Source: Bacteroidota bacterium (GTDB lineage Bacteria; Bacteroidota; Bacteroidia; Chitinophagales; Saprospiraceae). Taken from it: a stretch of 60,114 nt of DNA. The stretch spans positions 1-60,114 of the forward strand of contig JBCCQK010000001.1 in NCBI GenBank assembly GCA_039024375.1, in the 5' to 3' direction. Positions 15,414 through 57,390 of this stretch are shown here, piece after piece; the stretch's first letter is position 1, and each line of letters begins with the position of its first letter. The position numbers and the translations under genes are program-made. Under the pieces are notes generated by a model, which did no database searches, had not been told where the DNA came from, and saw only the letters and a program-made list of their open reading frames with translations.

Positions 15414-15434
15414 TTACAAGTTGTTCAGCACTCA

Positions 15435-15637: not shown

Positions 15638-15640
15638 AAA

Positions 15641-18037: not shown

Positions 18038-18240
18038 TGCTGGATGCTGGTTTCTGGATGCTAGATACTAGTTTCTGGTTCCTAGACACTCGTAACTATG
18101 GTGCTGACACGATGACAAACATAAAATGAACCACTAGATTTCTATTGGTGTGCAGTCTCTAATGGGATTAAGTTTATCTAAGTCAGTACGGTCTGCACTA
18201 GTATCCAGAATCCAGTATCTAGAAACTAGCATCCAGCATC
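18035..18240. repeat. Palindromic intergenic element whose arms are 7-nt periodic (GATGCTG GATGCTG GTTTCTG GATGCTA GATACTA GTTTCTG ...)
   Basis: The left arm starts in the TGA stop of paralog 5. The right arm ...CCAGTATCTAGAAACTAGCATCCAGCATC ends 14 nt before the start of paralog 6. Confidence 0.7.
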
Positions 18241-18254
18241 AAAAACAAAAAATC

Positions 18255-20714: not shown

Positions 20715-20836
20715 ATAGTATCAAGTTACCCACTAATTCGTGATTGCAATAACTGATTGGCCAAACGCAGGTGAGGCGCATCGCCCCACTTGTCGTTATA
20801 GCCGTAACCCTGATGGTAGCTAGCAGGCGAGTTTCC

Positions 20837-21316: not shown

Positions 21317-21532
21317 GTCAATTTTTTTATGATTTATGATAGAAAAAGTCCTAACAGTCACAATAAGGATTTGGATGTCAATTTTTTGCTTTTTTTTGAA
21401 AATCGTTCCTCAAATCTATCAAGTTTATCTGCGTTCCCATCACGGATAAGAGGTTGAAAACGAGCATAATGCTAGCATTTTCTTTGTTTGGCCTAGTAGC
21501 CTACTTAGCATTTGAAAACCAGATAGATACCA

Positions 21533-22573
21533 TCAAGACGTCCACCAAGGAGTTGTCTGTTGGAGCGAAATATCGAATAGCTGCCCCAACTCTGGTAAAA
21601 CGTACTCGACATTATGGGCCTTGGCCGCTTCGACAAAAACTTCAGCGGGTTCTGACCAAGTGTGTTGATAGGAGAGTGCAAAACCTGCCCAGTGCACGGG
21701 CATTATCTTTTTTACCTTCGCATCGATGGCCGCCTGTACACTTTCGTCCGGAAATAAATGGACAGGACGCCAATCGTCGTTGTATTGCCCACATTCCATC
21801 AAACCAAAATCAAAAGGACCCAATCGTTCGCCAATGGTTTTGAAGTGTTGATTGTAGCCACCGTCGCCACTGAACCAGATATTCTCGGTCGCCGTTTTGA
21901 GTGCCCACCCACCCCACAGACATTTGAGTCGGTCCGTCAGCCCACGACCAGAAAAATGTTGGGTGGGGGTAAAAGTGATGGAAAGATTTCCCAAATCCTG
22001 CGAATCCCACCAGTCCATTTCAGTAATTGAGTCGGGGCGAACGCCCCAACTAACTAGGTGTCGTTTGACGCCCAAAGCAACGATGTACTGTTTAACTTTG
22101 CCTTTTAGTCGCTGGATGCTGGCATAGTCTAAATGGTCGTAATGGTCATGCGTCAATAACACGACGTCAATGGTAGGAAATTGCTCGATTAGACTTAGGG
22201 TATTCTCCGAGAATCGCTTGGTTACAATTGGCGCAATCGGTGTCGTGTCTGGCCCAAGCATGGGGTCAATGAGTACTGTCTTTCCACTAGCTCTTAGCAA
22301 GATGGCGGAATGGCCATACCAAATCATTTTCACTTGTTCGCTGGGAGCTAAAAAAGCCGCTTTGTCAAAAGGAACTACGGGAATCGGGGAATCGGGAATC
22401 TGCTTCTTTTTGTTGGTTAATTGTCGGTAGAGTACACCCGGAATTTTGGAAAAAGGCATATCTACTTCCACGTTTTCGATGTTTTGGAAGCGATTGTTTT
22501 GCCAATTGGAGGAGCGCTGGTAGGTAGCTAAATCTTGTTTCGTTATTTTGCCGCCGAATTGTTTGAAGAACAT
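21533..22573 (-). CDS. MBL-fold metallo-hydrolase
   Basis: HxHxDH motif in LLTHDHYDHLD. 346 aa. Confidence 0.75.
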   Translation of the reverse strand: MFFKQFGGKITKQDLATYQRSSNWQNNRFQNIENVEVDMPFSKIPGVLYRQLTNKKKQIPDSPIPVVPFDKAAFLAPSEQVKMIWYGHSAILLRASGKTVLIDPMLGPDTTPIAPIVTKRFSENTLSLIEQFPTIDVVLLTHDHYDHLDYASIQRLKGKVKQYIVALGVKRHLVSWGVRPDSITEMDWWDSQDLGNLSITFTPTQHFSGRGLTDRLKCLWGGWALKTATENIWFSGDGGYNQHFKTIGERLGPFDFGLMECGQYNDDWRPVHLFPDESVQAAIDAKVKKIMPVHWAGFALSYQHTWSEPAEVFVEAAKAHNVEYVLPELGQLFDISLQQTTPWWTS

Positions 22574-42400: not shown

Positions 42401-45400
42401 AATCGACGCTCTACCGAATTAGCCGCTTCGAACCGTTCGTCTCCCAATTGGGTAGCCCGCAAAATAACCGTTCCCGCTTCTCCAGTCAACGTAATCGTGG
42501 TGCCCGAAATGGTAGCAGGGCCAGCAATAACGGCCAAATCAACTGGTAATCCTGAACTAGCACTAGCATTTACGGTGAAAGGCGCATCGGTAGTCATTTT
42601 ATCGGGAATCCCAAAAAAAGTAATCGCTTGGGGTTCTTTGCTTTTCCACGTAGACAGATGCTGTCCCGAAATAGGGCGGTCCAAACTTTTATCGGGCAAT
42701 TTCCAGCCTACCGAAAAATGTCCACCACCGTTCGCTAGGCCTTCGATGTAGTAATTGGTACCAGCGACCAGCAGAATAGGGTCAGACTGTTGACTTGCGT
42801 ATTTATTCCACTGGTTTGCTCGAGTGCTTTGCTTGACTAAGGCAATTTGTCGTTTATTTTTTGTCTGACCGTTCGTACTTAACCACAATTGGCTAGGTTC
42901 ATTACTAGCTATCCAGAAAGTATATAAACCCGTTTGTGGAGGGCAGATGAACCCACGAATCCTCTGAGTATTCTCGGAAGTAGTTAACGGACTGGCTTCA
43001 AAACGGTCCAATGTTGAAGTTTCATTAGGCTTTGTTTGAACGGGACCATTATCCGTTAAACTTTGCTGGCCATCCGTCCAAATATCTCTCGAAATTTTCC
43101 CGTCGGTAGCACAGTTCGCCGTGGAAGGTAGCACAAAGTTAAAACTACGTTCGATAGGGGTAGCGGGTCGATACGTACTATTTCCTCCTTGCGTTGCTCG
43201 AATTTTGACCCTTCCGGGGAAACCCGTCGAGACAATTTTATTGCCAAAAATAATGGCAGGCCCTTCCAATAAGTACATATTCACGGGCAGACCCGAAGTC
43301 GCCGTTGCGTTCAGTACCACCTCTCCCGTCGTAATCGGTTGGTCGGGAATTGGCGCACATTCAATGGTCTGCGCCAACCCACCACAATCGGGATAAATAT
43401 CTTTTTCGTAAACTGTAAACAAACCTTCGGGGTCCGTTACTTTTAGCGTTATTCGAAACCAGTAGGTCGAACCGTCGCACTCGACGGGCGAAAGGGAAGT
43501 AGTTGTGTTTGGTCGGCTATCAATCGGCTCGGCGTGTTCGTGGCCTTCGTGGAAAAGGCTCGTTTGCCATTCGTAACGCAATGAATTAGGGTGTTCCATA
43601 TCCCTTACCGTTGCGGATAAATTGAGGGTTGTTCCCGCAGCGGCCGAAAACCAATTTTGGTTATCAATACTAGTCGAAAGAATAACGGGCGGTGTGTTAT
43701 TTAACGAAATCGGAATGGTTTGCTCCGTTTGACCGCCTTGCGCATCTGTGACTTTTAACGTAACGGGATAGGTAGCGGGCGCATTTGAAGGAGCTTCGAA
43801 AATTACTTTAGGATTGATGTCCGTACTAGTCGCATTGTCCCCAAAATCCCACTCAAATTTTAGTGAACTGTATTCGGAGTCAAAAGATTGAGACGCATCA
43901 AATTGTACCGTTAGCGGACTAGTGCCGTAGGTTTGGTCAGCGTTAATAATGGCAACGGGGGGCTTATTTTGATTGCCTGTATAAGTGATTTTTCGAATTT
44001 GATTGGGGTAGCGCACGTAAAAAATGCCATTCTCCGCGGGAGAAACATTCATACAAACGACCGCTCCCGCATCCAATTTAAAGTCCTTGACAAAGGTTGG
44101 ATTATTCTGTTCGTCAAAACCAAAGTTTCTTATCCAGCCAGCACTGTAATCCGCATGAAAGTAGGTGTTTCGATAAGGTTCGGGAAAATCTTTCCCCGTG
44201 TACCAAACGCCCGCCGTAGAAGAGTTTCCTTGAAAAGGACGACCCTGAACAGCGCCATCTCCAATGACGGACATCTTACCGTTGATAAATGCCCTAGCTT
44301 GATTGGTCCCGTGTCGCCAATCAATTTTGGGCGGCGTATGTTCCGCTCTTCCCACATCGTATAATGGATTTTCGTAGCCCGCCTTTTGACTAATTCCTTC
44401 GTATATCGGCCAGCCAAAGTTTTGTCCAGGTGCATCGACTACGTTTAAGTCTTCCCAAGTGGACCAACCGACATCGCCAAAAATAAATGTTCCCGGTCGG
44501 CCGTCGGGAGCGTGGTGACTGCCCGATTCGGGTTTGATGGCCATGCGGTAAGGGTTGCGAATCCCAATGCTCCAAGTACGGGACTGGGGCGCTCGTGGAT
44601 TAGCTGAATCGTAATAAGGGTTGGAAGGTAAACCGTCGCCCGTTTCGGGGTCAATCCGCAGAATTTTACCACTCAAATTATTCAAGGACTGACAGCGATA
44701 GGCCCCGATATTTTGCTCGGGGGTAATAATGCCATCCGCTAATGCCTGTTGAAAATAGGTGGAAGGATGCGACCCTTCGTCGGCGGGGCTGGCGTAACTA
44801 GCTCCATCGCCAACGGTCACCATCAGAGTACCGTCGGTACCAAATAGAATTTGTCCCGCTCCGTGAGATTCGTGGAGAATCGGTGGTCCCGTCGATTTGC
44901 TTTCGCCAATTAGAATCTTTCTACTTCCATAGTCAATACTGGTAAAATTATCAGACGAGTTGGCAGTATATCGAGTAAGTCGAGCGATAGTCGCTTCCTT
45001 TTCGCTACTTACATCAGAGCGGTAATTATTAGTACCAAAGTTTAGCAAATGGTGTCGGTCCACGACGTACCATAAATAGAGGTGACCATTATTTAAAAAA
45101 TTGGGGTCTAAGGCAAAACCTACTAATCCGAAATCCCGCCAATTACCCACTTCTTCGCTGATGTCAATCAATGGCTCCGTACTTTTGATTCCTTTAGAAA
45201 CAGTCCAAACTTTTCCTCCTTTTTCCCAAACGTACATTCGTCCATTCTCGTCGAAAGTGACCCCAACGGCTTGATTCCAACCGTCAACAACCAATTCATC
45301 GGTAAATCCGTTGGGTTGCGCACAGATAGAAGAGAAACTTACGCACAGTAAAGCGAGTAGCCATAGCAAAGGGGGGCATTTTTTTTCGAAACCGAAAAAA

Positions 45401-45411
45401 GTGCAGTTCAT
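39478..45411 (-). CDS. Giant T9SS-secreted multidomain protein: PQQ-type sugar dehydrogenase-like beta-propeller, PKD-like domains, PA14-like domain, six Ig-like repeats, two GEVED-motif domains, T9SS C-terminal sorting domain
   Basis: Signal peptide. HESHGAGQILFGTDGTLMVTVGDG (SGDH-like). PLTVQFDAS (PKD). GFICPPQTGLYTFWIASN (PA14-like, ~42901-42960). Six ~77-aa repeats with TTDGPF...SSGLPV...GPA...TLTGE.GTV..RA.Q.GN. GEVEDY at ~40840 and ~40080. C-terminal LFPNP...GLYYVVIEVEGK. Confidence 0.85.
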   Translation of the reverse strand: MNCTFFGFEKKCPPLLWLLALLCVSFSSICAQPNGFTDELVVDGWNQAVGVTFDENGRMYVWEKGGKVWTVSKGIKSTEPLIDISEEVGNWRDFGLVGFALDPNFLNNGHLYLWYVVDRHHLLNFGTNNYRSDVSSEKEATIARLTRYTANSSDNFTSIDYGSRKILIGESKSTGPPILHESHGAGQILFGTDGTLMVTVGDGASYASPADEGSHPSTYFQQALADGIITPEQNIGAYRCQSLNNLSGKILRIDPETGDGLPSNPYYDSANPRAPQSRTWSIGIRNPYRMAIKPESGSHHAPDGRPGTFIFGDVGWSTWEDLNVVDAPGQNFGWPIYEGISQKAGYENPLYDVGRAEHTPPKIDWRHGTNQARAFINGKMSVIGDGAVQGRPFQGNSSTAGVWYTGKDFPEPYRNTYFHADYSAGWIRNFGFDEQNNPTFVKDFKLDAGAVVCMNVSPAENGIFYVRYPNQIRKITYTGNQNKPPVAIINADQTYGTSPLTVQFDASQSFDSEYSSLKFEWDFGDNATSTDINPKVIFEAPSNAPATYPVTLKVTDAQGGQTEQTIPISLNNTPPVILSTSIDNQNWFSAAAGTTLNLSATVRDMEHPNSLRYEWQTSLFHEGHEHAEPIDSRPNTTTSLSPVECDGSTYWFRITLKVTDPEGLFTVYEKDIYPDCGGLAQTIECAPIPDQPITTGEVVLNATATSGLPVNMYLLEGPAIIFGNKIVSTGFPGRVKIRATQGGNSTYRPATPIERSFNFVLPSTANCATDGKISRDIWTDGQQSLTDNGPVQTKPNETSTLDRFEASPLTTSENTQRIRGFICPPQTGLYTFWIASNEPSQLWLSTNGQTKNKRQIALVKQSTRANQWNKYASQQSDPILLVAGTNYYIEGLANGGGHFSVGWKLPDKSLDRPISGQHLSTWKSKEPQAITFFGIPDKMTTDAPFTVNASASSGLPVDLAVIAGPATISGTTITLTGEAGTVILRATQLGDERFEAANSVERRFEVTPPPRLPKVILNSPANGSSYTQNRLDVRYTLSGDLDFYEANHLLLTLDNQAPIDIHTLNGVYTLKNLSEGTHTLKLQLANSNHQPFNHASATKEVQFTIVPTEKEQQIDFPKLLDKLTTDGPFAIAATATSGLPVQFLLESGPAVLNGNVITLIGQPGTVAVRAIQTGNEEYQPAKDVVRSFDVQSPTIEQQSQSITFPAIPNKKTTDGPFAITASASSGLPVTFAIRTGPATVDGNVITLTGESGTVKVRASQAGNAQFKRAISYDRSFTVESVVPATQQLINFPSLANKLTTDGPFAIAATATSGLPVEFSILSGPATISNNIISLTGESGEVIVRASQRGNSQYLPAPFVDRPFTVSEPITTPPAVEEVNEVSSDYCTTESLFPWQEWIGRVNFGQLDHTSSKAVYTINDYTNLEYAKNERYLLQVIPNFSWTQWDEHISVWIDFNQNGRFEETESVLRAVSLSGVPPTASDGVSATILIPNTAKIGTTRMRVAMQRMEFSTPCEVVNQGEVEDYLISIVDSNSEVSVVEKQAQSINFPAIANQLTTTQTVLLAATATSNLPVSYQILSGPAEVNGNTLKLSGTEGTVVVSAQQAGNAQFLPAQSINRAFKVSSPIEQEETPDDVPATIENYCDAKGQSPWQEWIGRVQFHTLDHISSKEGYGDFTNKETTVERGQTYQLSVSPAFSWTQWDEHINVWIDFNQNGVFEVETELVLSGVSKAQTPNTNPQSVTEQITIPANAGIGTTRMRVAMRQTNAPETCGTFEFGEVEDYTIRIVSSSSSTDKQSLVFSAFLDPKQQVDLQWIASSNQSVLDYEVERSTDNIHFETLQNISLVPEALTATFYRSSDSSPLSGVTYYRVKQRHEDASFVYSNTVVVERAFAENEFYLFPNPVRRQLRLYVKPFLEKSAVITIYNSFGKRIHSQQTPYIETAFMNIDMQQTQNGLYYVVIEVEGKRAISRKFVVNRNY

Positions 45412-45813: not shown

Positions 45814-48800
45814 TTAAGTTTTAAATTTTAGATTTCTTTGATACTTTTCCTCCAATAACGCTTGGAGAATTTTAGCGAATTGCTCGCCATTGGGGGGATT
45901 GAATAGACTCAGGTGGTCTCCGGGGACATCCAAAGTATGGATTTTTCCTCGAATGTAAGGTTTCCATCCTAAAAATTGGTGGTCTTCGATAAAAAATCGT
46001 TGTTCTTCGGCTCGAAATAGGTGTAAATCACCTTCGTAGGGGGTAATGGTATAGTTTTTCCAGGCCTCAAAATTACTCTGATTGACAATCGATTCTAATT
46101 GCGTGTCTTGCTGCGTTTGGGTGTCTTTACCTTCCTTGAAAACTCGATATTTCCAGTTGTTTAACTTTCTTATATAGACATATTTTCGGTAACTGAAATT
46201 CTCTACGGGATTGGTTACCAAGTCTTTCAAGTTCCAAGCGACTTTCTTACCAATCGTACTCACTTTTTCTGAAAAAGAATGCTCGAAATTGGTTAATTCG
46301 GGTTTAATCACCGTATCAAATACGCTTAACAGTAACACTTCCTTGTTCGCTGCTTGCAATTGCTTGGCCATTTCAAAAGCAATTAATCCGCCAAAAGAAT
46401 AGCCCGCCAAAGCGTACGGTTGGTTGGGGTGCACTTGTTGAATCGCTTCAATATAATGACTCGCCATATCTTCAATTCTATCTAGCGGCTGTCCTTCCCC
46501 GTTCAGTCCTTTAGCTTGCAGGGCATAAATGGGCTGGTCGTCGTCCATATTAGCTGCTAAAGTTTGGAACATAAGCACGTGCAATCCGCCACCGTGAATC
46601 AAATAAAGCGGTGGTTTGCTACCCGTTGTTCTGATGGGTACTAGCGACCCTTCAAAGGTACGCTCCGCTTTTTTATCCAATAAATAACCTAATTGATTGA
46701 TGGTAGAATGTTGTAACAAAGCGGCCAATGGCACTCGCCTGCCCAATTTCTTTTCAATGCTGGCCATCATGCTAACGGCAATCAAAGAATGACCACCTAG
46801 TTCAAAAAAATCATCGTGGATGCTTATCGAATCTAAGTTCAGTAGGTCTTGCCAAATAGCCGCAAGCATTTTTTCGGTAGGCGACGTAGCGGCGCAGAAT
46901 ATCTTTTTCTTGGCAACGTTGGACCACTCTGGCACGGGTAATTTTTTCCTATCCACCTTCTGGGAAACCGTCATCGGAAAAGCATCCATCAAAACGAAAG
47001 CGGCTGGAATCATGTAGTCAGGTAATTGACCCTTTAAAAATTCTTTCAGTCCTTCAATGGAAAAAGTAGCTTGGTTGCGGACGATTAAATAGGCGGCTAA
47101 TCGTTTATCGTTCGGTTGGTCTTCTCGAACCATCACCCGATTTTCTTGCACTTCGCCGTATTGTCCAATGGCCGTTTCAATATCTCCCAATTCAATGCGA
47201 TACCCCCGAATTTTTACTTGCTTATCCCCTCGATTCAAATACTCGATATCTCCATTCGGCAAGTAGCGGCCACGGTCGCCCGTTCGATAAAGCGTTTGGT
47301 AATGTTTTTCGTCGGAAAAAGGATTAGGGACAAAAGTCTTATTCGTTAGTTCGGGAAGTTGATGATAACCATTCGGCGCTACGCCAACGCCCGCAATGTA
47401 AATTTCTCCACCTACGCCAATAGGCACGGGCTGCTGGGTTTGGTCCAAAATGTAAATTTTTACATTATTGATGGGACGCCCGACGGGCAAGTAGCCGAAA
47501 TTGTCTTCGGAAAACAAATGAGGTTGAATTTGCTTAGTTGTTGACCAAATAGTTGTTTCGGTGGGGCCGTAAATATTCCAAACTTCTTTAGTATTCGCCA
47601 ACAGTTGCTGTGCCAATTCTTTGGACAAACCTTCGCCCCCCGATAGCGCTCGCAACTGCGGACTATTGGTCCACCCCGCTAGAAGTAGCATCTGCCAAGT
47701 TGAAGGCGTGGCTTGCATTAGTGTAGGCTTCGTTTTTTCAATTAACTCCTTTAATAAGAAACCATCTTTTACGGCTTCTTTGTCAGCAATGATGACCGTT
47801 CCACCCACGAAAAGTGGCATAAAAAAGTCCTGTACCGATGGGTCAAAGGCAATCGAAGCAACGGCCAAAATTTTATCTTTTTCGTCAATTTTATATTTAT
47901 CAATAATCGCTGAATGGTGGTCAACTACCGCATAGTGCGGAATAGCGATTCCCTTAGGTTTTCCCGTTGAACCTGAAGTGTAAATAATATAGGCTGTGTC
48001 CGTCACCCGAGGCGTCGAACCATTTTGAATCAACGGTTGGAACGTATTTTCTAAACTATTTTCGTAAAAAAGAACCGTACCATCGAAGACAGGAATCTGG
48101 TTTTTCAACGGCTCGTGACTTATTAAAAAATCGGCTTTTACATCTTCTAAAATAGTAGCCAATCGTTCGGTCGGATTGATAGGGTCTAATGGAATATAGA
48201 TAGCGCCTAATTTCAAAACGGCTAGTAAACTTATCAACATTTCGGAAGAGCGCTCTAAATAAACCCCAACCTTTTTTCCTCTTTTAACTCTTTTTTGCTG
48301 AAAATAGCCCGCAAGAATAGTCGCCCGCTGATTTAATTCTTGATAAGTAACTAGCTCATTATTAAAGGTTAAGGCTGTTGCATTAGGAAATTGCTGCGCT
48401 TTTTGTTCAAAAAGTGTATGAATACAAACCGTTGGAAAGTTATCCACATTTGTGTCGTTCCAAGATGTTAATAACTTTTCTCGTTCCGATTCGGGTAGCA
48501 ATGGAAGTTGGGCAATAGGCTGATTGGGTTGCTCCAAAATGCCCTTTATCAAAGTGTCAAATTCCAGTAATCGACGTTGAATCGTTGACGTATCAAAAAG
48601 GTCGGTATTATAAATCCATTCGAAGGTAATGCCCGAAGCGTTCGTTTTTAAATTGATAAAAATATCGAAGGTCTCGTAATTGCGGGGAACGGCGCGAGTG
48701 GAAACTTTTAAGTCCCCAAAATTTAGTTGACTAAAATCGCTATCCAAGTTGAAAAGTACCGAAATAATGGGTTGCCGACTGGTGTCTCTAGGTAATTTTA

Positions 48801-51800
48801 ATTCCTTGACCAATGCGCCCAAGGTATAATTTTGGTGGTCAAAGGCATCCAGCATTTTAGTCCGTACTTTTTTCAGATGCGCTAGAAAAGTATCGGTAGC
48901 GTCAACGGTCATTTTCAGCGGAAGCAAACTAACGCTATGTCCCACCAAACCTTGATTACCCGCAATGGCTTGACCCGCCGCTACGACGCCTAAAGTGAAC
49001 GTTTCCTGTTGGGAAAGCCGATGAATGAACGTTTGAAAAGCGGCGAACATAAAATTGTAAAAAGTGGCGCCTTGTTTAGCCGCTAGTTGTTTAATATTTG
49101 TTTGCACATCGGCAGAAAAATGAATTTTTTCCATCGCCGAAGCATACGTCTTCACGGGCGGACGTAGGCGGTCCGTCGGAAAAGCTAAAACGGGAATATC
49201 GTCGGCAAATTCTTTTTTCCAATAATTAACCGACTGTCGATAGGCCTCCGATTCTTTCGCTTTTGCGACTTCTAAAGCGTACCTACTTAGTTGCTTGGGT
49301 GCGGTCAACGGTTGATGCTTTTTACCAACTAATTTAGCGTAAAGCGTTCCCAAATCCGTGCTTAAGATTCCCAACGACCAACCGTCGGCGATGATGTGAT
49401 GCACCGTAATGATGACTAAATGAACGTCGTCGGCCAAACGAATGATTTGAAAACGAGACAGCGGGCCTTGGAATAAATCCATTGGGGTTTCGGCCTCCTG
49501 TTGGTGAATATCGGATAGGGTTAGGGACTTTTCTCCATTGGCCAAATCAATAAAAGGAATCGACATTTCAAAGTTGAGGGCAATGATTTGGGTTTTCCCA
49601 TCTTCACTAAAAGTCGTGCGCAATGCTTCGTGTCGGTCAACTAGCTGCTGAATGGCGGTGCGCATTTTTTCGAGGTCCAAATTTCCCTCCAACCGGATTT
49701 CAGTCGCCAAATTATACGCCGAAGCCGCTTCGGAGTTGAACTGGTGTCCAATCCAAATTTCCTCCTGCCCGTCCGTCAACGGAACAATTTTAGGTTGGGT
49801 TGGGTCAACGGCTAAACCCATCAATTCGGGGTCAATAATTTCGTTTAAATCTTCGCCGTGCCATTCCATGAAGAATTGTCGGTCAAACATCTCGGCAATC
49901 GCCGTTTGGTAAATTTGATAGACTTTATCTAAATCTGCGTCGGAATGTTCGGTCGATAAAAATCCCGCTCTTTCGGTCATATACACGCCGTGGTGACGCA
50001 TGACGTGAAAGAATATTTTGGACAACGGGTAATCGTCGATGACTTTCACCGCTAAGATGGAAGAAGCCGATTTTATGGCTAGAGGTGCTTTCGTTGCTCG
50101 GAAAAGTTGGGCCAACCGTTTGGCGAAAGCCTTGGTTCTACGGTTTAAGTTGAATTGCAGTTGTGGCCCATTTGCTTTTAACTGTTCTAAAACTGCCTTG
50201 GCTGCCGCTAAACTCACGGGATGTTTAACGTACGTCCCACCAAAAAAAGTAACCATCGCTTCGGGGAACGAATCGTCACCGAATTGCCACTGACCGCCAT
50301 CGAAGGCATCCAAATATTTAGCCTTCCCCGCCAACATCGCAATGGGTAAGCCGCCACCCGCAATTTTCCCGTAAGCGCATAAATCCGCCTCGACGCCGTA
50401 CCAGCCCTGTGCGCCCGTTTGGGTCGCCCGAAATCCCGTTACACATTCGTCATAAACCAGCGCAATATCTTTTTGAGTAGCAATACTTCTCAATTGTTCC
50501 AATACTACTTTTCGCTGTAAGTGCGGTGTTTGGGTGTGAAAAGGTTCAACAATAATCGCCGCCAAATCATCGGCATTATCTTCGATAACGTCCATCAGAT
50601 TTGGGTCATCATAGTAGAGTACTAATACATTTGAAACCGCCGATTCTGGAATGCCCGGCGCAATCGTCATAGACTTCGTTCGTCCTTTCAATTGAACACC
50701 CCTTACTAGCATTTCGTCAGCGATACCGTGGTAGTCTCCTTCAAAAACGGCTACTTTTTCTCGACCCGAAACGGTTCGGGTGGCTCTAATGGCGGCGGAG
50801 ATGGCTTCCGAACCCGTATTGACCAAGGTCGCCCGTTCCATGCCCGTCACTTCACAGAGTAACTCAGCCACTTCCTTGGCCAACGGTGGTAAAACGGCTA
50901 ATTCCGTTCCTTTTTGCATTTGTTCAATGACCGCCGTTTGCACAAAATCGGGCGTGTGACCGAAGAGACCAATACCAAAACTCATTAGAAAATCGATGTA
51001 TTCGTTTCCGTCCACGTCCCACATTTTAGAGCCTTTGGAACGAGTCATGGCGATTTGGTAAACGGCGTCTTTCCACAGTTTATTGAAGGCTTGAATGGAG
51101 CGTGGGTCGGATAAATATTGCCGTTGCACTTGACTCAATCGTTTCGACCCTTGGGTTTTCTGATTGTATTTTTTTATAAAATCCGCTAGTTGCCTTTGTT
51201 GAAAATCCGTTAGTTCCGAGACACCTTTCGGAATAGGTTTCCAAGGACCGAAGCCTTTTGACTTATCTGCATCGCTTACTTTTGGAGGTAGGGAAGTTAA
51301 TTTTTGGGGCGTGGGAGACGGTATTTTTCGGGGTGAATTTTGAGCGGTACTTATTTGGGTTGGCACCGGCACATTAGTGGTCGTTCCACTTCCTTTCAGC
51401 AGGTCTAATTGCTGCTGCATGATTTGCAACTGTTGGTTGATGACCGTTTGTAAGGTGCTATTATTAGTCGTCGAGGTGGTTGGTGACACAATTGTTGTGG
51501 GGGTAACCGTATTTTGAACGATTACTGGTGGCAGAAATAAGTCTTTGGCTAGAGTTTCATCCACGTACTCAGCTAATCGCTCAATGGTGGAAGCGTCTTC
51601 AAAAAGTTTCCGAAAGGTAATGGCTAGCTGAAATTTCCGATTAAACTTCGTGACCGCTTGGGTCAAAAATAAGGAGTCAAAGCCAAGTTCTAAAAAGGTG
51701 GCTTCGTTGTCCATCTCTTCGGCTTCCAAGCCACTCAGTTCGAATAAAATTTCTTTGATGAGGTCAATCAGATGGTCTTTTCTAGTCATCGTCTGGGGTT

Positions 51801-54800
51801 TTATAGGAATTGTCGAAGTAATAGGTTGAACAGTAAAATGGAGGGGCTGTTCCACTGGCGTAACTCCAGAGGTTGGAATTGTCTGTTTGGTCAAGGCGGG
51901 CGCTATCCAATGTCTTTTTCGTTCGAAAGGGTAAGTAGGTAAAGGGACTTTGGCGGGGGAAAATGGTTCGTAATATTTATTCCAATCAATAGCTACGCCG
52001 TTACACCACAATTTTCCTAGCGTTTTTTGCAAAAAAGCCACATCATCAATCGTTTCCTTAGGGTGTCGAACCGACGAATAAATGGATTGCGTTTTATCTT
52101 TTTTAGGATGCTGCCGAGCAAAAGTAGCCAATGTTTGACCGGGGCCAACTTCTAGTAAAAGGCCATTTTTTTCTTTTAAAATAGTGGCCAAACCATCCGA
52201 AAAACGCACCGTTTGTCGAAGGTGGCGTACCCAATAATCGGGCGTTACCATTTCTTCGGGAAGCGCCCAATTTCCATTGACGTTGGAAATGACTGGAATG
52301 ATTGGTGGATGAAAACTAATGCCTTTTAGAAAGGCGCTAAATTCGGGAATGATGGGTTCAATTTGTGCCGAATGAGCGGCCACATCAATGTGTATTTTGC
52401 TCGCTTCTATCCCCCGTTGGGTTAGCTTTTGGTGTAAATGATTTATCGCTTCGACGGTTCCCGAAACTACACAATTATTGGGTTTATTGATGACCGAGAT
52501 GCTTGTTTTATCGGACAAATAGGGCGATAGTTCCTTTTCCGAGAGGGAAACGCTTAACATACTCCCCGCTGCCGATAAACCTTCAAAAAGCTGTCCCCGC
52601 TTGACGACTATCCGCAAACCGTCTTCCCAAGAAAATACACCCGCCAAGCAAGCAGCGGTGTATTCGCCCATGCTGTGGCCAATCATTTGGTCGGGTTCGA
52701 TTCCCCAATTTTGCCAGAGTTTAGCTAAAGCGTACTCGACAGTAAAAAGCGTGGCTAAGGCGTTGGTCGGTCGCTGAATGGCCGATTTATGTTCGTTGGT
52801 CGCTGATATGGTTTCGGTAAAAAGCAATGGTGCAATATCCAGTTCCCATTCCTTTTTTAGAAAATCTGCACAGCTATCCACCTGCTCTCGAAAGGTTGGA
52901 AAAGCGATATAAAGTCCCTTTGCCATTCCCACGTACTGCGCTCCACCACCGGGGAAAAGGAAGGTGATTTTGGAGGCAGTATTACCACTTTTTAACTGAT
53001 TTTTAAAAGTAGCAGTAGGTTTATCAGAATTATTTGATGAGTAAATATTGCTCAATCGATAGTTGAAAGCGGCTCGCCCCGTAGCTAACGTATAAGCAAC
53101 ATCTACAAGACGAATGTCTGGTTTTCTTTCTAGAAAAGCGGTCAATTGTGCCTGCTGCTCGTTCAAAGATGATTCACTTTTTGCGGAAAGCAATAATAAA
53201 TTAAAATTAGGAGTAGGAATCGTTTTGGTGTTTTCTTTAACTGCTGGTGCTTCTTCTAAAATTAAGTGCGCATTGGTACCACCTAAACCGAAAGAACTAA
53301 CCCCCACTCGTCGAATCCGTTCACCTTTTTCCCAACGTTGCAATCGGTCGTTGACGTAGAAAGGAGAATTGGCAAAATCTATTTGTGGATTGGGTTTTTC
53401 AAAGTTCAATGATGGTGGCAGCAACTCATATTTCAAGGACAAAGCCGTTTTAATAATCCCCACTAAACAAGACCCAGCATCAAGGTGACCAATGGCCGTT
53501 TTGACGGAACCAATGGCACAGTATTGTTTTTTATCCGTATGCTTTCGAAAGGCTTTGGTGAGTCCCGCCACTTCAATTGGGTCACCTAAAATAGTTCCCG
53601 TCCCGTGCGCTTCCACGTAGTCGATAGCGTCCGCCGATAGATTAGCTTTGGCCAAAGCGGTCGTAATCGCATCCGATTGTCCTTTGATACTTGGTGCTGT
53701 AAACCCTATTTTTTCATTACCATCATTATTGATGGCCGTTCCTTTAATAACTGCCCAAACATGGTCTCTATCTTCAAGTGCACGGTCTAGCTTTTTTAAA
53801 ACAATACTTACCATTCCGTTTCCTCGTACCATTCCCTTTGCTTCGGCATCAAAAGCTCGGAGATAGCCGTCGGGAGACAAGGGTCCACCTTCCACATAAT
53901 CGTAACCTGCTTGCAAATCGGGCTGAATTCGGCCACCACTCACGAGTACCATATCCGAATCGCCGTTCAAGATACTTTGGCAAGCGAGATGAACGGCCGT
54001 CCCCGAAGTAGAGCAAGCGGTTTGCACATTTACGGCGGGCCCCTTCAAGTTCAATTGATAGGCTACTCGGCTGATGGCAAAGGTTTTTTCACTGCCTAGC
54101 GTGTCTTGATATTCCCCTGCCGTTGCTAATAAATCGGGATGGGTTGCAATATTACCGGAAAAGTAAGAGTTGCGGGCAACGCCTCCGAATATGCCGATTT
54201 TACCTTTGTATTCGTAAGGATTACAGCCCGCACTTTCCAAAGCTGCGTAAGCTACCTCTAATAAAACTCGGTGCTGCGGGTCCATCATCGCTGCCTCTTT
54301 GGGATAATAGCCAAAAAAAGCCGCATCGAAACACGCCAAATCGTCGAGCGATAAAGTTCTGGCGACTCGGTTGGTCCGTTTTAGGAGTTCTTCGCCTTGT
54401 CCTAATGCTTCCAAATCGGCGGCCGTTACGGCTCGACTTACATCTTTTCCGTTGACCAAATTCAACCAGAATTCGTGTAGCGAATTGGCGCCCGGTAAAC
54501 GGCAAGCCATGCCAATAATGGCGATGTCGGACGAGGAGAAACTACTCTTAATTGGTTGTTTTTTAGGTAAGTTTTCTTGTGTATCAAGTGGCATTTCGTA
54601 CCCTAAGTCCTTCGCTAAAGTAAGCGTTTCGATATTTAATTGCTGTATATTTTTAGGTGAAGGAGTAGCGGCTTTTTGGGCGTTTATTTTTGTAAATTTC
54701 AAAAGGTTGCTATCGCTCATTGAGCGGGATTCGGCGTGAATCCCATTGATGTTTTTTGTTTCAATGTTTTGGTAAGGAGTCAGTAAATCGGGGTGAAAAG

Positions 54801-57390
54801 GCAGGTCAATTTGCTGACAAAGCGCCTTCATCATTTCCTCGGGCCGTTGCACCAACGCTTCGTACTGCAATCGAAATTGCTGATTCTGCGGAATTTTCTG
54901 TAAAAACTGTTGAATATTTCGATGGCTTTCCAACCAAACCAACTCTCCTAGTTCTTTCGAATTATACCGATGATTTTTTAGATACAGCACTTGTTCCATG
55001 TGGTACTTTTCGAAAGAATGAACCATGGATTGTGGATGGCGTACTAAATGAATAAAAATGGGATTATCAAAGTTTTGGTGGATATTTTCTAGTGTTGCTG
55101 CGTCCAAAGCGTAGGCGGGCGTTTTGTCCACAATGATTTTGGGAGCCGCCCACGTTTGCAATTGTTGGTAAAAATCTAAAGTAGTAGCGCCGTCCATTTC
55201 CCATTGTCGAATGGTTGCTTTCGCTTCGTCCACGCTGCAATTTTTCAGTTGCATCACCGCCCGAACGGCGCCTTCTTGCCAAAGCTCGAATTTGCCAACG
55301 TAGGCTTGATTGCGCTCCGCCAAAGTCGAGAATCCCAATAATTTTAGTTCGTTGAAAGCAACTAAATCGGGATGACCCGCCAGCATTAAACTCAATAGAC
55401 TAGTCCCCGAACGGGGCGGCGCTAGTATAAAAATAGCCGATGGGTTTTTTATAGCGATTGGTGTCGGCGCAGTAGAAGTGGGAAGGTATTTTTTGAAATC
55501 GGCAATTTGTACCGCAGTTAACCTACTTTCTTCTTCCTTAGCGCTAGCTACACTTTTCTTCGTTTGAATAGCTAATTCTTTCGCGTAGTCTTTAGTTAAA
55601 AATTGAGCATACTCGGCAATCGTTGGATGGTTAAAAATCGTTGTGACAAAAATGGACGTATTCAGTTTTTTTTGCCATTGTCCGATAAATTGAGCCGCTT
55701 GAATTGAAGTACCACCTAGTTCAAAAAACTTATCGTGGCGGCCAATGCCGTCTATTTGTAAAATGGATTCCCAAGATTTTGCTAGTTTCTTTTCCAAATC
55801 ACCTTTTAGAGTAGTATAAGCTTGTGCCAATTTGGGACGACTGCTCGGTGGTAATGGCAACGCCTTTCGGTCGAATTTTCCATTTGGAGTTAGAGGCATT
55901 TTGGCTAAAGTCACAAAACGAGTAGGTAGCATATAGGGCGGTAACTGCTGCGCCAAAAAATCCCGTAGTTCGCTGATGGTTACCGCATTTTCACTGTTCT
56001 CGGTCAAATAGGCTACTAACATTTTTTGACGATTATTGTCGTCTGTTCGAAGCACGACCACCGTTTCTTTAACACTCGGATGCTGCCCAATTGCCGTTTC
56101 TATTTCTCCCAATTCTATTCGATAGCCGTTGAACTTTACTTGAAAGTCGGCTCTGCCCAAAAATTCGACGCTATCGTCGGGTGACCACTTGGCCAAATCG
56201 CCCGTTTTGTACAGCGTTTTTCCCCCACGAATTGCTTGAAAAGGGTTGTTAATAAATCGTTCGGCAGTCAGTTCAGACCGATTCCAGTATCCTTTTCCAA
56301 CTACGTCTTTTGCGCCGCCAATGTAAATTTCGCCCACCTCCTCCTTACCAACTTCTTGTAGCTGTTCATTCAAGATGAAAATTTCGTAGTTAGCAATTGG
56401 AAAACCAATGGGTACTTTAGCTGCTGCGAACCCTTTCGGTATTTTAAAAAAAGTACAGTTGACGGTCGCTTCCGTTGGGCCGTATAAATTGTACAATTGA
56501 CAGTTAGTTAGTAACTGTTCGTGTCGTTGGGCTAAAGAAGTTGGGCAAACTTCTCCCGATACGTTGATGAGTTCGAGAGATTGTAATTTTTGGGGATTGG
56601 CTTGTTCTAGAATTAACGTATGCAAGGAAGGCAGCGTGAGTAGGTGGGAAATCTGCTGCCGCTCAATCGTATTGGCTAACTGCTGGATATCCTTTTCTTC
56701 GTCCTGTCGAGGAATTACTAAGGTTGCCCCTTGATAGAAGGTCCAAAAAATGGTCAACACCGATACGTCAAAAGAAATGGAACAAGTCAGCAACATTTTA
56801 TGGATAGGATTGGGCGCAATTTGCTGTTGCCCTTCTAATTGATTCATTACGTTTTGGTGGCTAATCATCACCCCTTTAGGACGCCCCGTTGACCCCGACG
56901 TGTAAATCATATACGCCAAGTCGGTAGATTGATTGACTTTTTGGTAAGGTTTCGAGAAGTCTGGTTCTAATATCTGTTGAATCTTCTCTATAAAAACCAA
57001 TTCAGTAGGCAGTCCTAAAAGATTACTTTTAAAAGCACTTTGTGTAATAACTATTTTAGCTTGGGCATCTTCCACCATAAATCGAACCCTCTCCTTCGGG
57101 TAAGCCACATCAATTGGTACGTAGGCCGCTCCTGCCTTTTGAATCCCAATAATTGTTACCAATAATTCTAAAGAGCGTTCCAAATGAAAGGCCACAAAAT
57201 CGCCTCTTTGAACGCCTTTTGCTTGTAGATAGCTAGCCAATTGGGTTGATTGTTGGTCTAGGGCAGCGTAAGTCAGCACTTGATTTTCGAAAATCAACGC
57301 TGCTTGATTAGGCGTTACAGCCGCATAGTGCTCGACCAATTCGGGTAGGAGGGTATTCTTTCCAAAAAATGTTACGTTTTTTGAGGACAT
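45814..57390 (-). CDS. Hybrid NRPS-PKS megasynthase, 3,858 aa: A-PCP-ST-KS-AT-ACP-AMT-C-A-PCP-TE
   Basis: Approximate nucleotide spans from hand translation follow. A1 55860-57390 (LAYMIYTSGSTGRPKG, NLYGPTE, YKTGDL, NGKFDRKALP). PCP1 55600-55830 (FFELGGTS). Sulfotransferase-like 54700-55450 (FILAPPRSGTSLL, LVRHPQSMVHS). KS 53245-54525 (TACSTS, EAHGTGT, KTAIGH). AT 52020-52975 (GHSMGEY). ACP 51540-51790 (LGFDSL). PLP aminotransferase 49880-51230 (AYGKIAGGGLP). C 48480-49790 (HHIIADGWS). A2 46950-48450 (AYIIYTSGSTGKPKG). PCP2 46690-46900 (FFELGGHS). TE 45850-46640 (GYSFGG, PGDH). Confidence 0.9.
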   Translation of the reverse strand: MSSKNVTFFGKNTLLPELVEHYAAVTPNQAALIFENQVLTYAALDQQSTQLASYLQAKGVQRGDFVAFHLERSLELLVTIIGIQKAGAAYVPIDVAYPKERVRFMVEDAQAKIVITQSAFKSNLLGLPTELVFIEKIQQILEPDFSKPYQKVNQSTDLAYMIYTSGSTGRPKGVMISHQNVMNQLEGQQQIAPNPIHKMLLTCSISFDVSVLTIFWTFYQGATLVIPRQDEEKDIQQLANTIERQQISHLLTLPSLHTLILEQANPQKLQSLELINVSGEVCPTSLAQRHEQLLTNCQLYNLYGPTEATVNCTFFKIPKGFAAAKVPIGFPIANYEIFILNEQLQEVGKEEVGEIYIGGAKDVVGKGYWNRSELTAERFINNPFQAIRGGKTLYKTGDLAKWSPDDSVEFLGRADFQVKFNGYRIELGEIETAIGQHPSVKETVVVLRTDDNNRQKMLVAYLTENSENAVTISELRDFLAQQLPPYMLPTRFVTLAKMPLTPNGKFDRKALPLPPSSRPKLAQAYTTLKGDLEKKLAKSWESILQIDGIGRHDKFFELGGTSIQAAQFIGQWQKKLNTSIFVTTIFNHPTIAEYAQFLTKDYAKELAIQTKKSVASAKEEESRLTAVQIADFKKYLPTSTAPTPIAIKNPSAIFILAPPRSGTSLLSLMLAGHPDLVAFNELKLLGFSTLAERNQAYVGKFELWQEGAVRAVMQLKNCSVDEAKATIRQWEMDGATTLDFYQQLQTWAAPKIIVDKTPAYALDAATLENIHQNFDNPIFIHLVRHPQSMVHSFEKYHMEQVLYLKNHRYNSKELGELVWLESHRNIQQFLQKIPQNQQFRLQYEALVQRPEEMMKALCQQIDLPFHPDLLTPYQNIETKNINGIHAESRSMSDSNLLKFTKINAQKAATPSPKNIQQLNIETLTLAKDLGYEMPLDTQENLPKKQPIKSSFSSSDIAIIGMACRLPGANSLHEFWLNLVNGKDVSRAVTAADLEALGQGEELLKRTNRVARTLSLDDLACFDAAFFGYYPKEAAMMDPQHRVLLEVAYAALESAGCNPYEYKGKIGIFGGVARNSYFSGNIATHPDLLATAGEYQDTLGSEKTFAISRVAYQLNLKGPAVNVQTACSTSGTAVHLACQSILNGDSDMVLVSGGRIQPDLQAGYDYVEGGPLSPDGYLRAFDAEAKGMVRGNGMVSIVLKKLDRALEDRDHVWAVIKGTAINNDGNEKIGFTAPSIKGQSDAITTALAKANLSADAIDYVEAHGTGTILGDPIEVAGLTKAFRKHTDKKQYCAIGSVKTAIGHLDAGSCLVGIIKTALSLKYELLPPSLNFEKPNPQIDFANSPFYVNDRLQRWEKGERIRRVGVSSFGLGGTNAHLILEEAPAVKENTKTIPTPNFNLLLLSAKSESSLNEQQAQLTAFLERKPDIRLVDVAYTLATGRAAFNYRLSNIYSSNNSDKPTATFKNQLKSGNTASKITFLFPGGGAQYVGMAKGLYIAFPTFREQVDSCADFLKKEWELDIAPLLFTETISATNEHKSAIQRPTNALATLFTVEYALAKLWQNWGIEPDQMIGHSMGEYTAACLAGVFSWEDGLRIVVKRGQLFEGLSAAGSMLSVSLSEKELSPYLSDKTSISVINKPNNCVVSGTVEAINHLHQKLTQRGIEASKIHIDVAAHSAQIEPIIPEFSAFLKGISFHPPIIPVISNVNGNWALPEEMVTPDYWVRHLRQTVRFSDGLATILKEKNGLLLEVGPGQTLATFARQHPKKDKTQSIYSSVRHPKETIDDVAFLQKTLGKLWCNGVAIDWNKYYEPFSPAKVPLPTYPFERKRHWIAPALTKQTIPTSGVTPVEQPLHFTVQPITSTIPIKPQTMTRKDHLIDLIKEILFELSGLEAEEMDNEATFLELGFDSLFLTQAVTKFNRKFQLAITFRKLFEDASTIERLAEYVDETLAKDLFLPPVIVQNTVTPTTIVSPTTSTTNNSTLQTVINQQLQIMQQQLDLLKGSGTTTNVPVPTQISTAQNSPRKIPSPTPQKLTSLPPKVSDADKSKGFGPWKPIPKGVSELTDFQQRQLADFIKKYNQKTQGSKRLSQVQRQYLSDPRSIQAFNKLWKDAVYQIAMTRSKGSKMWDVDGNEYIDFLMSFGIGLFGHTPDFVQTAVIEQMQKGTELAVLPPLAKEVAELLCEVTGMERATLVNTGSEAISAAIRATRTVSGREKVAVFEGDYHGIADEMLVRGVQLKGRTKSMTIAPGIPESAVSNVLVLYYDDPNLMDVIEDNADDLAAIIVEPFHTQTPHLQRKVVLEQLRSIATQKDIALVYDECVTGFRATQTGAQGWYGVEADLCAYGKIAGGGLPIAMLAGKAKYLDAFDGGQWQFGDDSFPEAMVTFFGGTYVKHPVSLAAAKAVLEQLKANGPQLQFNLNRRTKAFAKRLAQLFRATKAPLAIKSASSILAVKVIDDYPLSKIFFHVMRHHGVYMTERAGFLSTEHSDADLDKVYQIYQTAIAEMFDRQFFMEWHGEDLNEIIDPELMGLAVDPTQPKIVPLTDGQEEIWIGHQFNSEAASAYNLATEIRLEGNLDLEKMRTAIQQLVDRHEALRTTFSEDGKTQIIALNFEMSIPFIDLANGEKSLTLSDIHQQEAETPMDLFQGPLSRFQIIRLADDVHLVIITVHHIIADGWSLGILSTDLGTLYAKLVGKKHQPLTAPKQLSRYALEVAKAKESEAYRQSVNYWKKEFADDIPVLAFPTDRLRPPVKTYASAMEKIHFSADVQTNIKQLAAKQGATFYNFMFAAFQTFIHRLSQQETFTLGVVAAGQAIAGNQGLVGHSVSLLPLKMTVDATDTFLAHLKKVRTKMLDAFDHQNYTLGALVKELKLPRDTSRQPIISVLFNLDSDFSQLNFGDLKVSTRAVPRNYETFDIFINLKTNASGITFEWIYNTDLFDTSTIQRRLLEFDTLIKGILEQPNQPIAQLPLLPESEREKLLTSWNDTNVDNFPTVCIHTLFEQKAQQFPNATALTFNNELVTYQELNQRATILAGYFQQKRVKRGKKVGVYLERSSEMLISLLAVLKLGAIYIPLDPINPTERLATILEDVKADFLISHEPLKNQIPVFDGTVLFYENSLENTFQPLIQNGSTPRVTDTAYIIYTSGSTGKPKGIAIPHYAVVDHHSAIIDKYKIDEKDKILAVASIAFDPSVQDFFMPLFVGGTVIIADKEAVKDGFLLKELIEKTKPTLMQATPSTWQMLLLAGWTNSPQLRALSGGEGLSKELAQQLLANTKEVWNIYGPTETTIWSTTKQIQPHLFSEDNFGYLPVGRPINNVKIYILDQTQQPVPIGVGGEIYIAGVGVAPNGYHQLPELTNKTFVPNPFSDEKHYQTLYRTGDRGRYLPNGDIEYLNRGDKQVKIRGYRIELGDIETAIGQYGEVQENRVMVREDQPNDKRLAAYLIVRNQATFSIEGLKEFLKGQLPDYMIPAAFVLMDAFPMTVSQKVDRKKLPVPEWSNVAKKKIFCAATSPTEKMLAAIWQDLLNLDSISIHDDFFELGGHSLIAVSMMASIEKKLGRRVPLAALLQHSTINQLGYLLDKKAERTFEGSLVPIRTTGSKPPLYLIHGGGLHVLMFQTLAANMDDDQPIYALQAKGLNGEGQPLDRIEDMASHYIEAIQQVHPNQPYALAGYSFGGLIAFEMAKQLQAANKEVLLLSVFDTVIKPELTNFEHSFSEKVSTIGKKVAWNLKDLVTNPVENFSYRKYVYIRKLNNWKYRVFKEGKDTQTQQDTQLESIVNQSNFEAWKNYTITPYEGDLHLFRAEEQRFFIEDHQFLGWKPYIRGKIHTLDVPGDHLSLFNPPNGEQFAKILQALLEEKYQRNLKFKT

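Follow-up and report, generated by a model that had tools for sequence, protein, structure and literature searches.

The stretch of DNA analyzed here, referred to as the window, comprises 60,114 nucleotides (positions 1 to 60,114 of contig JBCCQK010000001.1, assembly GCA_039024375.1) from a bacterium of the family Saprospiraceae and carries a gene for a hybrid megasynthase that combines nonribosomal peptide synthetase (NRPS) and polyketide synthase (PKS) modules. The subject of this report is a sulfotransferase (ST) domain within the loading module of that synthase. The list of open reading frames (ORFs) and their translations placed the whole assembly line in one minus-strand ORF, 45814-57390, of 3858 amino acids (aa). 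Pfam searches and a domain map made with phmmer gave 11 domains in the order A-PCP-ST-KS-AT-ACP-AMT-C-A-PCP-TE, which are listed below from the loading end onward with the evidence for each.

45814..57390, minus strand: hybrid NRPS-PKS megasynthase ORF (ORF list, translation, Pfam, phmmer map)
55876..57333, minus strand: loading adenylation domain (A1), aa 20-505 (Pfam AMP-binding and AMP-binding_C)
55576..55818, minus strand: loading peptidyl carrier protein (PCP1), aa ~525-605 (Pfam PP-binding, three stretches)
54589..55479, minus strand: sulfotransferase domain (ST) of the CurM/OLS family, aa 638-934 (Pfam PF13469, phmmer against PDB sequences, AlphaFold2 model with Foldseek)
53056..54531, minus strand: ketosynthase (KS) with C-terminal extension/linker, aa 954-1445 (Pfam ketoacyl-synt, Ketoacyl-synt_C, KAsynt_C_assoc, and CurL-like_PKS_C)
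52093..52965, minus strand: acyltransferase (AT), aa 1476-1766, active site GHSMGE (Pfam Acyl_transf_1, motif)
51556..51783, minus strand: acyl carrier protein (ACP) of the PKS module, aa ~1870-1945, LGFDSL (Pfam PP-binding, motif)
49975..51057, minus strand: class III pyridoxal phosphate-dependent aminotransferase (AMT) of the MycA type (beta-keto to beta-amino), aa 2112-2472 (Pfam Aminotran_3, PF00202)
48469..49791, minus strand: condensation domain (C), aa 2534-2974, HHIIADGWS (Pfam Condensation, E = 4e-92; motif)
46921..48423, minus strand: second adenylation domain (A2), aa ~2990-3490 (Pfam; code DPQQLGIIWK, Gly-like)
46690..46866, minus strand: second peptidyl carrier protein (PCP2), aa 3509-3567, FFELGGHS (best Pfam PP-binding stretch, motif)
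45862..46611, minus strand: terminal type I thioesterase (TE), aa 3594-3843, GYSFGG (Pfam Thioesterase)

The hallmark catalytic motifs of every domain other than the ST are intact, as judged from the sequence and the Pfam matches. The phosphopantetheine serine of PCP1 lies within FFELGGTS (aa 555-562, by motif position), and the KS, which starts at aa 954 at DIAIIGMACRLPG, has its active-site cysteine in TACSTS in addition to the HGTG and GH motifs. The best PDB match of the AMT was the aminotransferase of mycosubtilin synthase A (6kfm/6kfu; E = 4e-99 to 7e-99), over the full length of the domain. The terminal TE was considered as a CurM-type partner of the ST and rejected, because its PDB matches were generic NRPS, fatty acid synthase (FAS), and PKS thioesterases and the CurM TE was not among them at E values of ≤1e-5.

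A CurM-type sulfotransferase domain behind the loading carrier protein

The first-pass annotation of this DNA had proposed that a sulfotransferase is inserted between the loading PCP and the KS, and the domain map bore this out, with PCP1 upstream of the domain and the KS from aa 954 onward downstream of it. The annotation had described an insert of ~250 aa at 54700-55450; that span does fall inside the domain, which is really ~300 aa long (54589-55479). Assignment of the insert to the CurM/OLS-type, Sulfotransfer_3-like family was upheld by a hidden Markov model (HMM) search, in which aa 653-866 matched positions 2-215 of the 216 in the Pfam profile Sulfotransfer_3 (PF13469; E = 6.3e-27), with a weaker match to Sulfotransfer_1 (4e-6). 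Among PDB sequences searched with phmmer, the best match was the CurM ST (4gbm; E = 9.5e-54, aa 638-934 on residues 20-311 of the chain), followed by the OLS ST (4gox; E = 8.4e-46) and then, at ~1e-5, by tyrosylprotein sulfotransferases. The comparison with CurM ST crystal structures that the annotation had suggested gave the same result. The AlphaFold2 model of the ST (pLDDT, 87.5) superposed on both crystal structures with TM scores in the range of 0.81-0.91 (0.81/0.89 for 4gbm and 0.81/0.91 for 4gox), which were the top Foldseek matches, and tyrosylprotein sulfotransferases came next at ~0.55. These matches in sequence and fold are far beyond chance, and the insert is thus confirmed by HMM, sequence, and predicted fold as an intact CurM-type sulfotransferase domain. 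The NCBIfam collection returned no model for this ST or for the A-PCP-ST cassette, the sole match being a sub-threshold one to NoeE.

Two motifs for binding of 3'-phosphoadenosine-5'-phosphosulfate (PAPS) had been named from the sequence, and both were located in the ORF and aligned with their CurM counterparts. The peptide of the 5'-phosphosulfate-binding (5'-PSB) loop, AIFILAPPRSGTSLLSLMLAGHP, occupies aa 652-674 (window 55369-55437, minus strand); its PPRSGTS (R660) aligns with SPRSGST of CurM, so that R660 corresponds to CurM R39. The 3'-phosphate segment LVRHPQSMVHS (R784, S792) occupies aa 782-792 (window 55015-55047, minus strand) and aligns with LVRHPYSVIES of CurM. In the residue-level alignment to 4gbm, in which the CurM numbering is consistent with a three-residue tag offset of the chain, E681 corresponds to CurM E60 and D755-K756 to CurM K133. 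Glu60 and Lys133 of CurM are reportedly catalytic, as McCarthy et al. are said to have found in 2012 along with the roles of further residues in the CurM ST.

Both E681 and K756 are invariant in the alignment of related STs. Across ~85 such STs the PSB loop, the catalytic Glu, the Lys of the DK pair, and RHPx5S were each present in most, no variant residues were seen at these motifs, and the loci in which a motif went undetected were partly fragments. Identity of the ST to its full-length orthologues is 47-65%, on par with that of A1 and AT, whereas the linkers are at 10-42%. Conservation at the level of A1 and AT, well above the linkers, points to purifying selection, as would be expected for a working enzyme.

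Relatives of the cassette and the residue loaded upstream of the sulfotransferase

In order to place the domain among its relatives, 1.84 billion protein representatives (50% identity) were searched with the ST using HMMER, and the best 150 were domain-mapped by phmmer with the window's own domains as queries. The ST was matched by 928 representatives at an E value of ≤1e-30. Of the best 150, 148 either carry the ST behind an NRPS A-PCP or are fragments, and the ST stands directly behind a carrier protein (CP) in every member with upstream sequence; it is followed by a C domain, a TE, or a KS, or else ends the protein. The sole member of the PKS type known from CurM and OLS, with ketoreductase (KR)-ACP-ST-TE, is P0165. 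Thus, the first-pass annotation overstated the oddity of an ST that is not placed before a TE. A position in the loading module is not a novelty either, since NRPS examples (OciA, DysB, and AerB) have already been published.

A scan of one genome per species revealed at least 561 ST loci, and the architecture was read in the best 80, which are mainly Saprospiraceae metagenome-assembled genomes (MAGs) with ST identity of up to 73%. The exact order A-CP-ST-KS-AT-CP-AMT-C-A-CP-TE was found in ~50 of these 80 loci, mostly from Saprospiraceae. Split versions, with A-CP-ST and KS-AT-CP-AMT-C-A-CP... in separate genes, occur in Trueperaceae, Gemmatimonadota, Pirellulaceae, Gammaproteobacteria, Spirochaetaceae, Burkholderiales, Pedosphaera, and Deltaproteobacteria. 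There are also trimmed versions, A-CP-ST / KS-AT-CP-TE in L072 (Anaerolineaceae) and L085 and A-CP-ST / KS-AT-CP-C-A-CP in L060 and L064. Dozens of Saprospiraceae species, and members of other phyla, therefore share the A-PCP-ST loading cassette. In a neighbor-joining (NJ) ordering without support values, the KS-linked STs grouped with stand-alone A-CP-ST proteins, away from most of the C- and TE-linked STs.

Other arrangements were also seen in the family. Some NRPSs have two ST domains, e.g., C-A-CP-ST-C-A-CP-ST-... (P0029-P0035 and P0055), and many ST-bearing NRPSs terminate in A(Thr/Ser/Tyr)-CP-ST-TE. An A(Thr/Ser)-CP-ST-TE end is the NRPS analogue of the ACP-ST-TE of CurM and could yield C-terminal enamides. 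In the gammaproteobacterial MAG with an A(Ser)-CP-ST / KS-AT-CP-C-A-CP line, a second, free-standing ST homologue (L060:19465-20382) lies ~2.3 kb past the last PCP.

Stachelhaus codes were read against a GrsA reference, which reproduced all ten published residues (DAWTIAAICK); the amino-acid names given to codes in the wider family (Thr, Ser, Tyr, Dab [diaminobutyrate], His, Gly, Ala, and Lys) follow published code tables. In agreement with the earlier prediction, A1 is an amino-acid-type A domain: the equivalent of Asp235 (D208; F207-D208 in FDVSV) is present, and so is Lys517. The A1 code, DVLLNSLVNK, shares 6 of its 10 residues with the Ser code (D235, V236, S301, L322, V330, and K517) and is noncanonical for Ser and for Thr alike. 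Its pocket is larger but remains polar, and the residue loaded is plausibly Ser-like or another small polar one. Among Saprospiraceae orthologues, DVLLNSLVNK is the most common A1 code (26 loci) and DGLLSAQVGK the next (16 loci). All of the cross-phylum versions have canonical codes, DVWH[IVFM]SL[VI]DK (Ser) in A1 and DILQLGM[VI]WK (Gly) in A2. The proteins nearest to A1-PCP of the window are mostly stand-alone A-PCP-ST tridomains, and 60 of 64 have the Ser code. With all cross-phylum lines and nearly all of these nearest cassettes coding for Ser, the cassette is fundamentally a Ser-PCP-ST. Hence, the idea that Ser or Thr is loaded stands at the level of the family, but not in the window's own code. 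Family-wide, Thr (~24), Ser (~10), and Tyr (~9) account for many of the ~100 codes read ahead of an ST, and Dab-, His-, Gly-, Ala-, and Lys-like codes occur as well.

These results suggest that the ST of the window is probably, though by a narrow measure, a functional PAPS-dependent sulfotransferase in a conserved A-PCP-ST loading cassette that would O-sulfonate a Ser-like aminoacyl-S-PCP before chain extension. Several observations weigh against this reading. The A1 code departs from the Ser code by W239L, H278L, I299N, and D331N, and a pocket that lacks His278 and Asp331 and has Leu in place of Trp239 may accept a residue without a beta-hydroxyl. DGLLSAQVGK is even less Ser-like, and the Saprospiraceae that have it nonetheless keep the ST. 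Some upstream A domains in the same ST cluster are Ala-, His-, or Gly-like, codes for which an amine or a distant acceptor is more fitting than the hydroxyl of a side chain. Alignment of the catalytic and PAPS-binding residues, as proposed in the first-pass annotation, recovered the PAPS loops, the Glu, and the Lys, but the position of CurM H62 is occupied by K683 (NELK; window 55342-55344, minus strand). Most NRPS-linked STs examined have Gln at that position (ELQ), one has Glu, and ELH was found in 1 of ~85; Lys is limited to the window's closest subclade (loci L004-L013, with Asn in L009), and the residue does not follow the A1 code. The AT specificity motif is VAAHS in place of the usual HAFH (malonyl) or YASH (methylmalonyl), and because of this atypical motif the extender unit is not securely predicted and malonyl was assumed. 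Finally, the 60-kb window contains no gene for PAPS synthesis and no sulfatase, phosphopantetheinyl transferase (PPTase), hydroxylase, tailoring, or synthase-tied transporter gene.

The codes also bear on whether the ST might instead sulfonate the free alpha-amine of the starter. The resulting sulfamate would either be retained as an N-sulfo group or serve as amine protection, which would block attack of the amine on the thioester after extension (release as a tetramic acid or lactam). Within the NJ cluster of the KS-linked STs, the upstream codes include Ala-like (DLFNNALTYK), His-like, and other nonhydroxylated ones, and those modules have only the alpha-amine as a common nucleophile. Furthermore, Dab- and Lys-like codes precede the ST in elongation modules, and in the case of sulfazecin it is established that SulN N-sulfonates a PCP-bound peptide (PMC11298585). 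However, the Ala and His assignments are tentative, and the specificity for Ser in 60 of the 64 nearest cassettes and in all cross-phylum lines would be needless if only the alpha-amine mattered. The closest characterized relatives, which are CurM, OLS, and, in terms of architecture, the AerB type, are O-sulfotransferases. N-sulfonation was downgraded as the main model on the strength of the Ser-specific nearest cassettes, and it seems improbable for this synthase.

The surroundings of related loci give some indication of where the product might be used. An Sfp-type PPTase gene adjoins the synthase gene in 37 of 87 loci, among them the window's closest orthologues (L006-L008), and polysaccharide-type genes flank the A-PCP-ST system in 23 of 87 loci from several phyla. 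Examples are as follows.

L026:19863-20771: Sfp-type PPTase gene
L072:7108-7971: Sfp-type PPTase gene
L085:16958-17659: Sfp-type PPTase gene
L086:8596-9345: Sfp-type PPTase gene
L086:6550-10001 and 19399-21888: glycan locus
L085:1-9700 and 16958-19882: glycan locus
L026:1-7600: glycan locus
L001, L072, and L021-L046-type Saprospiraceae: further glycan loci

In a subgroup of Saprospiraceae, the upstream genes encode a sugar-phosphate transferase/GT2 fusion, a second GT2, a GDSL hydrolase, an MBOAT protein, and an OEP protein. L001, L085, L086, and L072 together have the priming sugar-phosphate transferase Bac_transf (fused to a response-regulator receiver in L072), GT4 proteins, a FemAB-like acyltransferase, a polysaccharide deacetylase, PseC/ArnB-like sugar aminotransferases, a Polysacc_synt_2 dehydratase, a GFO/IDH oxidoreductase, and Wzz. 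Outside the Saprospiraceae at least, this gene neighborhood suggests that a surface glycan containing amino sugars may have the product attached to it or built into it. Rather than acting as a free toxin, the product may serve as a building block for a surface glycoconjugate.

The location of split versions in polysaccharide loci might also mean that the ST acts later or elsewhere, on an intermediate bound to the ACP or PCP2, on the released product, or on an acceptor in trans such as a glycan, or that it is a noncatalytic remnant. Consistent with action at a distance, Gly-coded elongation modules precede the ST in P0128, P0107, P0166, and P0056, which suggests that some family members act on the residue of another module. 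For the synthase of the window this possibility is very slight. The ST is always directly behind a carrier protein, as it is in CurM and AerB, and downstream intermediates gain no hydroxyl, since there is no KR and the keto group becomes an amine. Conservation of the catalytic and PAPS-binding residues, and a domain identity like that of the catalytic domains, argue against a structural remnant.

Proposed assembly route and fate of the sulfate

According to the O-sulfonation model, A1, whose pocket appears to be a diverged derivative of a Ser pocket, would load a serine-like amino acid on PCP1, and the ST would then sulfonate the side-chain hydroxyl of this aminoacyl-S-PCP with PAPS as the donor. 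Relative to the thioester this hydroxyl would be in the beta position, where the hydroxyl of the beta-hydroxyacyl-ACP of CurM and the 3-OH of glyceryl-S-PCP in AerB are found as well. The KS would join the O-sulfo-aminoacyl unit to a malonyl-type extender loaded by the AT (a C2 unit), after which the AMT, if it functions as MycA does, would turn the beta-keto group into a beta-amine and yield a vicinal 3,4-diamine. The C domain would link the diamine intermediate to the Gly-like residue loaded by A2, and the generic TE would free the product. This product would be a small sulfated molecule of the 3,4-diamino-acyl-glycine type or one processed by loss of the sulfate. The second half of the line resembles the MycA/iturin-type synthases in the order KS...ACP-AMT-C-A-PCP and in its AMT, a close homologue of the MycA aminotransferase. 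It differs in that the MycA-type starter is a fatty acid, whereas a sulfated amino acid is proposed here, and in having a cis-AT and an ST upstream.

In the off-loading reactions of CurM and OLS, the sulfate transferred by the ST is a leaving group, and a dedicated TE carries out hydrolysis and decarboxylative elimination. To our knowledge, these two proteins are the only biochemically characterized members of this ST family. The ST of the window is like theirs (4GBM, 4GOX) in family, fold, PSB loop, the R...S of the 3'-phosphate-binding (3'-PB) segment, catalytic Glu, and DK Lys. Moreover, in both cases the ST stands right behind a carrier protein and the probable acceptor is a hydroxyl beta to the thioester. 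The systems differ in what the carrier protein presents, a residue charged by an amino-acid A domain in the window compared to a beta-hydroxyacyl chain made by a KR on the ACP of CurM and OLS. They also differ in what follows, PCP-ST-KS with a generic terminal TE compared to ACP-ST-TE with a decarboxylating TE. Where CurM has His62, the window's ST has Lys, and the sulfate need not leave.

By analogy, the nearest published functional counterpart is the FkbH-PCP-ST loading module of the aeruginosins and cyanopeptolins. OciA (cyanopeptolin/oscillapeptin; PMC2533009) and DysB (dysinosin; PMC6520454) have an FkbH-PCP-ST loading module, and AerB (suomilide and varlaxin; PMC10143770) has an O-methyltransferase (OMT)-FkbH-PCP-ST one; in all three the sulfate is retained on glycerate. 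As in the window, the ST of these proteins is right behind the loading carrier protein. It acts before chain extension, as is proposed here, on the 3-OH of glycerate, which is the alpha-hydroxy analogue of serine. The differences are that glycerate is loaded by FkbH in those proteins, whereas an A domain (Asp235, Lys517) loads an amino acid here, and that the ST hands its substrate to a C domain there and to a KS here. The domain map of the synthase leaves no stretch large enough for an FkbH domain. What differs from the published STs is therefore that an A domain loads an amino acid and that a KS receives it.

Two further observations concern AerB-like arrangements among relatives. P0162, a presumed AerB-like protein (FkbM methyltransferase, an unassigned stretch, and CP-ST-C-A-CP-C), was among the 150 closest STs, with 40% identity. 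In L001, the Ser-specific A domain has an FkbM-type methyltransferase (Methyltransf_21; L001:8885-9778, confirmed by Pfam) inserted in, or fused to, its C-terminal portion, and in L049 one is suggested by the size of an insertion, ~260 aa between the A core (aa 57-547) and A-sub (aa 809-861). The FkbM insertions of these two loci, both from outside the Saprospiraceae, mirror the OMT-FkbH-PCP-ST of AerB; the synthase of the window has no such insertion.

Retention of the sulfate in the product, as with AerB, is a tentative proposal that we place a little short of probable. Apart from the glycerate-loading modules, the Tyr-loading modules of the ST family are able only to retain the sulfate, and within the glycan loci of other phyla an anionic substituent would be sensible. 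The alternative fate for an O-sulfate on a seryl-type starter, itself a sub-scenario of the O-sulfonation model, is that it is expelled during assembly. Expulsion could occur by attack of the alpha-amine (a Wenker-like reaction giving an aziridine-2-carbonyl unit), by attack of the AMT-installed 3-amine (giving an azetidine), or by E1cB elimination once the C3 ketone has formed, which would give a dehydroalanine-derived 4-amino-3-oxo-pent-4-enoyl unit. CurM and OLS, whose STs are homologous to this one, use sulfate in order for it to leave, and as a matter of chemical inference the Claisen condensation would put the sulfate beta to a ketone whose alpha-H is acidic, where it would be primed for elimination or displacement. 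The cross-phylum core is A(Ser)-PCP-ST plus KS-AT-ACP, with the AMT optional (L072, L085, L060, and L064), and the invariance of this core suggests that the constant pairing is sulfation followed by ketone formation. For the many family modules of the type A(Thr/Ser)-PCP-ST-C or -TE, elimination to dehydrobutyrine or dehydroalanine (Dhb/Dha) or to an enamide would come naturally. Nevertheless, expulsion seems rather unlikely. The STs of AerB, DysB, and OciA and the Tyr-loading modules stand against it, neither a CurM-type TE nor another dedicated eliminating partner is present here, and the association with exopolysaccharide loci in other phyla suits an anionic decoration more than a reactive warhead. 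That the Ser-type A-PCP-ST is a biological Wenker or elimination device, giving an aziridine, an azetidine, or a dehydroalanine-derived enaminone, is accordingly judged unlikely, by a shade more than expulsion in general. If it were so, it would be a widespread and unrecognized NRPS-PKS route to strained N-heterocycles or dehydroamino units.

SulN of sulfazecin biosynthesis, which was compared by description only, also sulfonates a carrier-tethered intermediate in a PAPS-dependent manner before further processing. SulN is free-standing, works in trans, and N-sulfonates the diaminopropionate (Dap) of a PCP-bound tripeptide, from which a specialized TE forms the beta-lactam; in the window the ST works in cis, the synthase has a generic TE (serine of GYSFGG), and a Ser-like residue is presumably loaded. 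In other NRPSs of the family, modules coded for Dab stand ahead of ST-TE or ST-C, which is reminiscent of this N-sulfonation. A genome-mining figure in JBC (2024) places "S" domains in line within NRPSs of Flavobacterium and Chryseobacterium that are predicted to make monobactams (PMC11298585). A literature search that covered few subscription journals returned no description of an A(Ser)-PCP-ST-KS line and no Saprospiraceae example; with the same limited coverage, it returned nothing relevant on sulfotransferases and carrier proteins in connection with aziridine, or on sulfotransferases in connection with dehydrobutyrine.

Carrier-linked STs studied so far are those of CurM/OLS off-loading, from which the sulfate leaves, and a few cyanobacterial glycerate loading modules, on which it stays. 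The 928 representatives and at least 561 loci in species-representative genomes make up a large unstudied population. It includes a coherent subfamily of Ser-type A-PCP-ST feeding KS-AT-ACP(-AMT-C-A(Gly)-PCP-TE), in one gene in dozens of Saprospiraceae and split within exopolysaccharide loci elsewhere. The role of the sulfate, once solved, would give a widespread orphan synthase a product and would show how far sulfate-activation chemistry reaches in NRPS logic (dehydroamino acids, enamides, aziridines, and sulfamates). The excised A-PCP-ST tridomain offers a compact system in which this is directly testable.

Gene neighborhood in the window

The synthase gene stands alone in the window. Its neighbors encode an M42 peptidase, a small ORF of unknown function, a 1977-aa cargo protein of the type IX secretion system (T9SS), RlmN, a GH3/beta-lactamase fusion, SmpB, and sigma factors. 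Neither the synteny families of related loci nor the glycan-locus genes of the relatives are represented in the 60-kb window. Features outside the synthase are as follows.

39478-45411, minus strand: predicted T9SS cargo of 1977 aa (GSDH beta-propeller, PKD, PA14, two GEVED, and Por_Secre_tail)
34781-37723, minus strand: 980-aa fusion of a GH3 glycosidase (N- and C-terminal domains) and a class C-type beta-lactamase/transpeptidase-like domain
4261-20714, plus strand: six tandem paralogues of ~790-890 aa each, with a MacB-like periplasmic core and an FtsX permease

The T9SS cargo gene lies directly downstream of the synthase gene and has a homologous neighbor in seven other fetched loci. The tandem row of MacB/FtsX paralogues is an unusually long ABC-type permease array.

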